From the IMG/VR virus record IMGVR_UViG_2703718789_000001, positions 1 to 8,034 of that record: 8,034 bases of DNA; one strand, 5' to 3'. Below are positions 3,001 through 6,000 of the stretch, one piece after another. The position numbers were made by a program. The first letter of the stretch is position 1, and every line of letters begins with the position of its first letter. This DNA comes from a virus (taxonomy: Duplodnaviria; Heunggongvirae; Uroviricota; Caudoviricetes).

Positions 3001-6000
3001 TTGGCAACATCCGTTCCATAAAGATGCGCCAATAGCTCGGTGGTTATGACAGGGATCTGGTTGTGGGTAATCGGGGAAAGAGTTTCAACTGCGATTTTGG
3101 TGGCCATAAGATGATCCTTTTTCTTTGTGAATCATCACCACCTGCGACGCCAATCGCTTGGTGGTGAACTGTGCAGGGTTGGCGTAACCGGGAAAAAGGA
3201 ACCGGCGCGGATTGCTCCGCCCCCACACAGCCCACCATTGAGATGTGACTGTGCAAACGACAATAAAAAAGACGCTGGCGCGTCTGTTGTCGCCTTTTTC
3301 ATCCGGGACGCCAATCCCGACGCCAGATTTTGCTGGCGTGTGAGGAATATAGCCCCGGATAAATCATCGCGTCAATCCCCTTGTATTCCTCGCACGATGT
3401 CTTAGCCACCGGATATCCCACAGGTGAGCCGTGTAGTTGAAGGTTTTTACGTCAGATTATTTTGGGATTGGCTTGCGTTTATTTCTGGAGCGTTTCGTTG
3501 GAAGGTATTTGCAGTTTTCGCAGATGATGTCGGTGATACTTCGTCGCGTCATTCCTCTTGCCTACGTTTCACATCCCGGTACTCACAATCATCTGGAATC
3601 GTCAGCCGCATCCCCTTCCGATGCGCCCACTGGTCAATGTCTGTCAGATATTTATGCATTTCCCCGATATCAAGCTGGCGCGTTGATTTAACGCATCGCG
3701 TAATATTAAAAATCGTCACCTTTTTTACCGGACAAAATATATCTTTTAGCCACTCATGAACCTCTTCAGGCGTGAAGTTTTCAGCAGAAACAGCAGATAA
3801 CTGTGCGGCTATTTCTGTATTCCACATCCACAGAAGACTGTTTTGTGACAATGTACGCTTCTCACGGTACTCAGATATTTTTATGCGCCAGCGTTTTCCG
3901 GTTTTAATTATTTCTTTAAGGATTTCCCAGAATTGTGATTTATTAGTTTCGTGCAGAATAAAATCATTCATCATCAGTCATCAAAATCGAGTTGTTGGAT
4001 AATTCTGTTGCGCTGAAACTCATTGTTGAGTCTGAACAACCGTCGAAGAACACGGTCACGCGGATAGCGCCGTGCGGCAGGTGAATGCTCATACAACTCA
4101 TCAAGCGGCAAACTGGACGATGAACGATACCGATACCAACGCACCAACTCTTCACGAAAATTAGCCCTGACAAGCTCAGCTATCGTACTCATTTCTTAAA
4201 GCCTCCAATCCCTCTCCCCCAAATAAAAAGGCCTGCGATTACCAGCAGGCCTGTTACAAGCTCAGTGATGTAGATGGTCATTGCTTCATCTCCCCTTCCA
4301 TTTCATCAATGTCAACGTCATCAGGAAGATGGGAACAATACGCTGCTATACCATGATGATTTATCTCATACCCTTTGAACGTTACCATCTGGCGCGTAAT
4401 CTCAACTTCGTTCAGGAATCCGCCATCGCATAACTGCCTGGCTATTTTCGATTTGGTCTGGATTATTGGTAGTGCCTGTTCTTTCAAAGCGTATGATATT
4501 TGTGCATCCCATGCCTTTTCGAGAATGGCTAATTGTTTTTTATTCATTTAATACTCCGTCACGTTTTCCTGTCGCCACGCCTCGTCATATTCCGATTTCG
4601 GCATATTGGCGATGTAGCTATATGGCGATCCTGATTCAAGTTGCAGGAACTGGTGCGATTGCTCGTCAAGGAACAACGGGACACCACCTTCCCAACCTTC
4701 GCCGTTACGTTGTTTTTCAAGCATCAAAACAGATGCCGGAGATGCCAGTAGCTGTTCGTCCTTCTCTGACATCTTTTCACCACTCTGAACTCTCTGTAAC
4801 GCTCTCTCGCGAGCCTTGTTACGCCAGATGATGAAAAGGTTGTCTGTCAGGTCTGTTATCGCTCCAGAGCCTTTTACGTCCATTTTCCCGGTTGGTTTTT
4901 CTTCGCTGTCTCCTTTTCGCGAGTGAGTAACGAGAATGACGTGGGAGTTTGTTTTGTTTTTGAAGTCGCAAATCGAGTCAACAAACGCCTTCTGCCCGTT
5001 ATAGTCATCGTCGCCTATGCCACATTTCATCAGGCTGTCGATGATGAATAACTGGATCCCGTATCGGCGGCGAGCGTAGTCGAATATTTCGATCAGCCTG
5101 TCGGCTTTCGCCGTTCCGGTCAGGCCAAACACCCAAAGTCTTTCGTCATAAAATTTAAATGCAGAGTCAATTTCCAGCAATGGAGGCATCTTGCAACACG
5201 TTGCCTGACGGGTAAGGCGCTTAAGGAGAATACCAGGCTTCAGCTCAAGTGACGCGATGCACGTCTTCACACCCTGACGCATTGCCTCAAGTGCCATATG
5301 CCCGACAACCTCGGTGTTATGCGTCGCCACATATCCCCTGGTTACATACAGGTGGCGAGGGTGATCGACCATAATACACAAGCATTCTGCATTGCCGATT
5401 TTTTCAACATTCCTGACGAATACCCCACAGCCCTCGAATCGATGCGCAGTTAATCTGCCATTGAGTCGTGGTGAACGGATGGCCTCCCTGATTTCTCTTG
5501 TCAGTCTGATTCTTGCCTCGTATGAATCCATCCCATGCCGCTTATCGTCCTTGTATGTGTATGTCACGCCAGTTTTAACTCGCGTCCGGCATGACCCGCC
5601 GAGTGAGTTAACCAGTTGAACAACCCCATTGCGCAGTTCTTCACTTGCTGAGGAAAAAACAAGCGTTCCATCCTTCTCGACATACCCATCCGTTTCAAGC
5701 AGACCACACAGCATGCCTATACGCGTTGATTTATTTGCGGAAAAAAACACACGAGGGATGAATTTGTTTTTTGCTGTGCACCCCATTAGTCCATAACCTC
5801 GCAGGGTCTCCATGAGTGGATTTGCCTGACCACGCGCCGTTGATATCAGCCAGTCCTTACCATCTCCAGAGAAGTTGTAATCAGGCAGTTCAGCCTTCAT
5901 ACGCTCGATCATGTATGGCTCGACGTTTGAAAACTTCACGCTCCCATTGCTAAGACTACCATCCCCGAGAAGGGAGCCGATAACCCATGCTAATGGCTCT

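Follow-up and report, generated by a model that had tools for sequence, protein, structure and literature searches.

An inherited premature stop codon in the accessory gene ninE of a lambdoid prophage lineage

In phage lambda, NinE is encoded by nin60 (J02459 42090..42272), which follows a ninB-type gene and belongs to the protein family PF05322. Its function is listed as 'unk' (PMC3224144). Lambda forms plaques without the nin region, whose genes are non-essential; deletions of the nin5 type, which remove several genes together with terminators, abolish ninE function while plaque formation is kept (PMC10695390). Start and stop codons overlapping as ATGA are typical of the gene junctions in nin regions (PMC8022706). 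Two sequences closer to the present subject have been deposited. The coliphage HK542, a free plaque-forming phage that plates in EOP assays (bioRxiv 10.64898/2026.07.10.737580), encodes gp43 (YP_007151779.1, NC_019769 31595..31696), which is annotated as a 33-aa 'NinE family protein' and not as a pseudogene. In Escherichia coli UTME-6, by contrast, the locus ACET1L_RS03575 (NZ_CP169023.1 695523..695711) is listed by RefSeq as a 'NinE family protein' that is pseudo owing to an internal stop.

Here we describe ninE in a stretch of 8,034 nt of a tailed-phage record (IMG/VR IMGVR_UViG_2703718789_000001, positions 1 to 8,034), referred to below as the window. The gene belongs to the same family as lambda NinE, occupies the same place after a ninB-type gene and has a nearly identical core, but carries TAA where lambda has GAA. 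It further differs from lambda in its N-terminus, MTRRS, which stems from a different upstream junction, and in a C-terminal extension of the Stx-phage type, NTRGLTR. As with the nin5 deletions, function would be lost and plaque formation kept; in the window, however, a single codon is changed and the rest is in place. HK542 has the same GAA>TAA change at the same codon, and the 55 nt centered on that codon are 100% identical to the window. Its flanks are different, with a canonical NinB upstream, NinF downstream and a lambda-like 3' end, and there are six differences in the 156-nt core. The UTME-6 locus shares with the window all 189 nt of ninE, the upstream gene and the downstream c4/ant module, but is without about 540 bp, holding a 135-aa ORF and ninF, that are present in the window. 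The locus is thus a pseudogene already known in kind: real, inherited, previously annotated and belonging to a known gene family.

The interrupted ninE locus and its neighbourhood

All genes and features of the window discussed here lie on the minus strand. The ninE pseudogene (3364..3552) consists of 62 codons and a normal TGA stop (3366..3364) and is interrupted at codon 32 by an ochre TAA (3457..3459), as is evident from its translation, its Pfam scores and the RefSeq annotation of UTME-6. The original prediction had named the gene ninE, placed the TAA at this codon in a frame matching NinE on both sides, and gave Glu as the residue encoded at this position in lambda; all of this is borne out. 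In alignments, the codon is GAA in lambda nin60, in E. coli O157 TR01 and in strain N32, with almost identical DNA on either side, as it is in every other close relative examined, and one G>T substitution, at ninE nt 94 (window 3459), accounts for the stop. The ATG of ninE (3552..3550) overlaps the TGA (3551..3549) of the upstream 141-aa gene (3974..3549) as ATGA (3549..3552), and the predicted coupling of the ninE start to this gene is supported by both the sequence and the ORF coordinates.

The portion that is still translated (3460..3552, 31 codons according to the ORF list and the translation) scores 68.2 bits on the Pfam NinE profile (PF05322) over profile positions 4–33 of 58, and the conceptual 62-aa read-through product scores 139.7 bits over positions 5–57. 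Because both values are far above the cut-off of 25 bits, homology to NinE on both sides of the stop is far beyond chance. The untranslated C-terminal half (3364..3456), comprising 30 sense codons and the TGA, has stayed in frame and is otherwise unmutated. The location also fits the family: the gene lies in a nin region, is ATGA-coupled to a NinB-like gene and precedes genes for Ant, KilAC, NinF and NinG, an order that is the same in relatives. What the locus does not offer is an uninterrupted frame of about 56–65 codons covering the whole profile. Instead, same-frame homology flanks an in-frame TAA at a position where intact orthologs have a sense codon, as in a nonsense pseudogene.

That NinE proteins might naturally end near residue 31 was considered and rejected on the basis of cluster lengths and unselected gene copies. 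Among the 120 NinE clusters listed from a collection of 5.8 billion proteins, lengths range from 39 to 108 aa and are most commonly 58–63 aa; none is about 31–33 aa, and those shorter than about 50 aa are mostly labeled partial. Likewise, 113 of 119 unselected IMG/VR copies of ninE are intact. The remaining copies in this set comprise two truncated by rearrangement (L031 and L125), one fused (L089), one frameshifted (L116) and one cut by a contig end; one further, divergent allele (L104) stays open as far as a stop at the usual position. A stop at codon 32 was found in none of the 119 copies, nor was any other point nonsense mutation. The homologs ending naturally after some 31 residues, which would have contradicted the nonsense interpretation, thus exist formally in the 33-aa gp43 of HK542; this protein represents the rare carriers of the same nonsense change and not the natural form of the family. 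Damage to ninE was also seen in the protein clusters P0105, P0109 and P0048, where frameshifts diverge after ...ESDVK at an A5 run (GTAAAAACC) or later, and natural disruption of the gene takes several different forms.

In an alignment of 30 family members, conservation of at least 90% holds for Glu at the column of codon 32 and, beyond it, for S35, V37, T39, F40, Y42, L46 and R55; together with E34, these seven make up the nearly invariant residues at or past the stop. Eight nearly invariant positions of this alignment fall in the lost C-terminal part. Of the 58 profile positions, 30 are kept in the 31-aa fragment, and the invariant PT.(K)RSRNK motif is among them. An AF2 model of NinE, of low confidence (pLDDT 68.8, pTM 0.27), places a helix over residues 34–59; since these residues follow the stop, the predicted C-terminal helix would be gone.

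The gene upstream of ninE (3549..3974) encodes a divergent NinB-like protein of 141 aa, which reaches 20.1 bits on Pfam NinB, below the cut-off of 23.8, and is a 'hypothetical protein' in RefSeq. Its junction with ninE gives rise to the N-terminus MTRRS instead of the usual MRRQRRS. In sister phages with the same primase, its place is occupied by NinB, with or without HNH and Dam. Further upstream lies a Toprim primase-helicase of 968 aa (4548..7454) with a 342-aa insert at residues 372–713. In comparison with a 626-aa homolog, the insert sits inside the Walker-A P-loop (GVNGHGK / ACPLNE...YVATHN / TEVVG), and the flanks are 99% and 96% identical. The protein matches Pfam LAGLIDADG_3 with 31.7 bits and Hom_end_hint below threshold, and by these sequence features the insert looks like an intein with a homing endonuclease domain, starting with Ala (position 1), ending in HN and followed by Thr at +1. 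Exactly this 968-aa protein is listed in 141 blocks of a public collection.

Downstream, a promoter-like site (TTGACG-18-TATATT, 3375..3346) overlaps the last ninE codons. The spacer between ninE and ant contains Rfam matches to the c4 a1/b1 target (c4-a1b1, 3300..3352, 50.1 bits), isrK (3265..3339, 78.6 bits) and the C4 antisense RNA (3157..3242, 74.3 bits), as well as a terminator-like hairpin (3285..3270). It looks like a P1 immI-type c4/ant regulatory module ahead of the ORF6N/P22AR antirepressor gene ant (2433..3107), which follows the c4/isrK spacer. Next come a 135-aa coiled-coil-like ORF (1957..2364) and a NinF-like ORF (1788..2018; Pfam NinF, 50.8 bits). The segment of about 540 bp with these two ORFs (1818..2355) is present in the window, in L135 and in L137 (see below) and absent from UTME-6, and is a mosaic indel.

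Inheritance of the allele within one prophage lineage

Sister loci were fetched via contigs encoding exactly the same 141-aa upstream protein or exactly the same 968-aa primase-helicase. An identical 189-nt ninE with the TAA and the same NinB-like/ninE junction was found in six assemblies beyond the window, namely L133 (CP169402.1), L135 (GCA_015699165.1), L136 (UTME-6), L144, L150 and L151, and the 968-aa primase-helicase is present in every assembly with the TAA junction whose locus reached the replication gene. L135 is the closest sequence found to the window, with 3 mismatches in 6,426 nt. UTME-6, which was isolated from veal and is the closest complete relative, was the only one of 5,426 complete E. 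coli genomes to match a 241-nt region at 100%. This region lies inside an Stx2a prophage with stx2a downstream. Identity of the window and the UTME-6 prophage was ruled out, as the two are 98.75% identical over 5.7 kb, with an identical ninE, and are further distinguished by the indel block of about 540 bp.

Because the six assemblies differ from the window elsewhere and still carry the identical allele, the substitution is inherited and not an error; the lesion resides in the DNA and is no assembly artifact. The stop is an inherited allele of one prophage lineage that is defined by the junction of the 141-aa NinB-like gene with ninE. Intact ninE genes of 61–62 aa with the same MTRRS start also occur, in L132, L134 and L138–L141, which have the same upstream gene and a replication module of the lambda O/P type. 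The allele of the window lineage differs from these intact same-junction alleles at two positions only, G94T and T117C, which are 23 nt apart. The latter is synonymous (Asn39, AAC; window 3436) and corresponds to AAT in the closest intact alleles: every TAA copy whose 5' end encodes MTRRS has C at nt 117, versus T in 6 of 6 GAA copies with that end. The perfect linkage of TAA to AAC in the window lineage, as opposed to AAT in the intact alleles of the same junction, suggests from the sequences that a short tract was imported. Alternatively, the stop might have arisen by de novo mutation on an unsampled ancestor, AAC also being common among intact ninE alleles.

Within the lineage, ninE is still decaying. 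L137 (SRR28829082), which is 99.9% identical on both sides, has an out-of-frame deletion of 82 nt after ninE nt 24/25 (L137:3447, approximately window 3446..3527), by which codons 9–36 including the stop site are lost. This deletion is in keeping with a constraint that was relaxed once the gene had been inactivated.

The same codon change on other ninE backgrounds

A 55-mer centered on the mutated T, which seeds megablast solely where the T is present, was used to search for further carriers. Of the 5,426 complete E. coli genomes, it matched 2: UTME-6 and 47-1826, a broiler isolate whose ninE is likewise flagged by RefSeq for an internal stop. The corresponding wild-type GAA 55-mer occurs at 3,409 places in 2,110 E. 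coli genomes, which puts the frequency of the TAA allele at about 0.06% (2 of ~3,400 copies). In the phage collection, the TAA 55-mer matched HK542 and the Salmonella phages S107, S135 and S137, the latter three deposited as complete phage genomes. In exact 28-mer scans, the allele also turned up in Shimwellia pseudoproteus DSM 3038, in one viral contig from a metagenome and in two prophage contigs belonging to a single IMG genome.

The original prediction had left room for a sequencing error, with GAA in the true genome. So rare a variant among complete E. coli genomes is what such an error could produce. Yet the identical allele at the same junction in six assemblies that otherwise differ from the window, the recurrence of the same change in independently sequenced phages and in a Shimwellia genome, and the nature of the lesion, a substitution and not an error in homopolymer length, make this explanation extremely improbable. 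We are therefore confident that this ochre nonsense allele of ninE, an accessory gene of lambdoid phages, is genuine and heritable.

Altogether, the TAA carriers represent at least seven haplotypes, that is, the window lineage and at least six other backgrounds, in Escherichia, Salmonella and Shimwellia. In the 156-nt core these haplotypes are 2–9 nt apart, and the nearest GAA haplotype is a different one for each of them. The TAA is found with both AAC and AAT at +23, and the four-gamete test consequently fails. In every TAA carrier, the 30 codons after the stop are in frame and unmutated. Separately, two prophage contigs of a single genome (L006 and L009; IMGVR_UViG_2558860444_000013 and _000010) both carry the TAA and are identical in the 156-nt core, with different 5' junctions, a pattern that suggests gene conversion between co-resident prophages. 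Since ninE is so conserved, a single origin cannot be told from recurrence. For the occurrence of the codon change on other backgrounds, short-patch recombination between co-resident lambdoid prophages together with some recurrent mutation is the most likely explanation.

The spread over at least seven backgrounds and three genera with a clean downstream frame still goes somewhat beyond what one would predict for a single lesion that is purely neutral. Conceivably, although we consider it unlikely, the Glu>ochre change at codon 32 is non-random, either because the site is a mutational hotspot (as it might be if the imperfect direct repeat CCAGAAATAAAC, some 24 nt upstream of CCCAAAAGAATC, acted as a template) or because a weakly selected truncation, which would leave a functional 'mini-NinE' of 31–33 aa, circulates among lambdoid phages in several genera. 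In a stronger version of the latter idea, the truncation would be advantageous or neutral, with the activity residing in the N-terminal 31–33 residues or the loss of the helix allowing evasion of a host sensor, and the stop would for that reason recur and persist in viable phages. The number and taxonomic range of the haplotypes agree with such selection, as do the retention of the invariant PT.RSRNK core in the fragment and the scarcity of other nonsense changes: no other point nonsense mutation was seen in the 119 random ninE copies, and control 55-mers for two further single-base nonsense changes (E12 GAA>TAA and W45 TGG>TGA) had 0 matches each in the E. coli genomes against 2 at the real site, a comparison of two observations with zero that has no statistical power. 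A favored allele would hardly be confined to 0.06% of the E. coli copies, however, and L137 subsequently lost 82 nt of the retained N-terminal part, as expected of a dead gene. Moreover, no function at all is known for NinE. Selection for a functional short form thus appears very doubtful, and recombination between co-resident prophages with occasional recurrence can explain the identical change on several backgrounds.

Consequences of the premature stop codon

The G>T transversion has turned the conserved Glu codon GAA into TAA at codon 32. Ribosomes arriving from the upstream gene would start ninE normally via the ATGA overlap and terminate at UAA-U, the base following the premature TAA being T. 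In E. coli, UAA-U is a strong termination context. The product would be a basic peptide of 31 residues without the C-terminal half, where the predicted long helix and 8 residues that are nearly invariant are located. Judged from sequence and model, the allele is most probably null or strongly crippled.

Full-length NinE could still be made if the TAA were decoded by programmed read-through or suppression, and the 30 downstream codons, in frame and unmutated in every carrier, might be taken to point in this direction. An intact downstream frame is to be expected anyway for a young lesion in a slowly diverging gene. The TAAT context favors termination, no tRNA gene was found in the window, the tRNAs of the UTME-6 prophage are those for Ile and Arg only, and no Rfam element overlaps the premature stop. 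Decoding of the stop is accordingly given hardly any credence. With ninE translation ending at codon 32, effects on downstream genes should be negligible, because in intact relatives, too, ninE and ant are separated by about 255 nt that are left untranslated and that hold a c4/isrK RNA module with a promoter-like site of its own. Loss of ninE should be tolerated, as NinE is without known function and the nin region is dispensable.

It was also proposed originally that the stop might mark decay of the prophage. Consistent with general decay of a defective element, ninE is inactivated here and further degraded in the sibling L137, and a partial methyltransferase pseudogene is located a few kb downstream in UTME-6. 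Against this, wherever another long frame of the window has a counterpart in relatives, the two agree in length (primase-helicase, 968 aa; two ORFs of 89 and 72 aa; NinB-like, 141 aa; Ant, 224 aa; KilAC, 240 aa; NinG, 201 aa). In UTME-6 the region extends to ninH, Q, tRNAs and stx2AB, and its nin genes show no further lesion; the same stop is carried by the plaque-forming HK542 and by the Salmonella phages S107, S135 and S137. We thus regard decay as a very unlikely reading, and it was not upheld. Given a dispensable nin region and other long frames of the same length as their counterparts, the allele marks the probable loss of one accessory gene and not the decay of the prophage.

The biological weight of the finding is small, since all that is probably lost is a single accessory gene, of unknown function, in one Stx-type prophage family. 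Only one aspect is mildly unusual: several unrelated ninE backgrounds in three genera share the identical codon change. For annotation, the locus should be called a pseudogene and the base left "uncorrected". The combination of TAA at ninE nt 94 and C at nt 117 marks this lineage's NinB-like/ninE junction in every copy examined and can serve as a lineage tag. Alleles such as that of HK542 are ready-made, probably null alleles for work seeking the function of NinE. Finally, viable phages with the same stop constitute a natural experiment indicating that NinE is dispensable outside the laboratory too.
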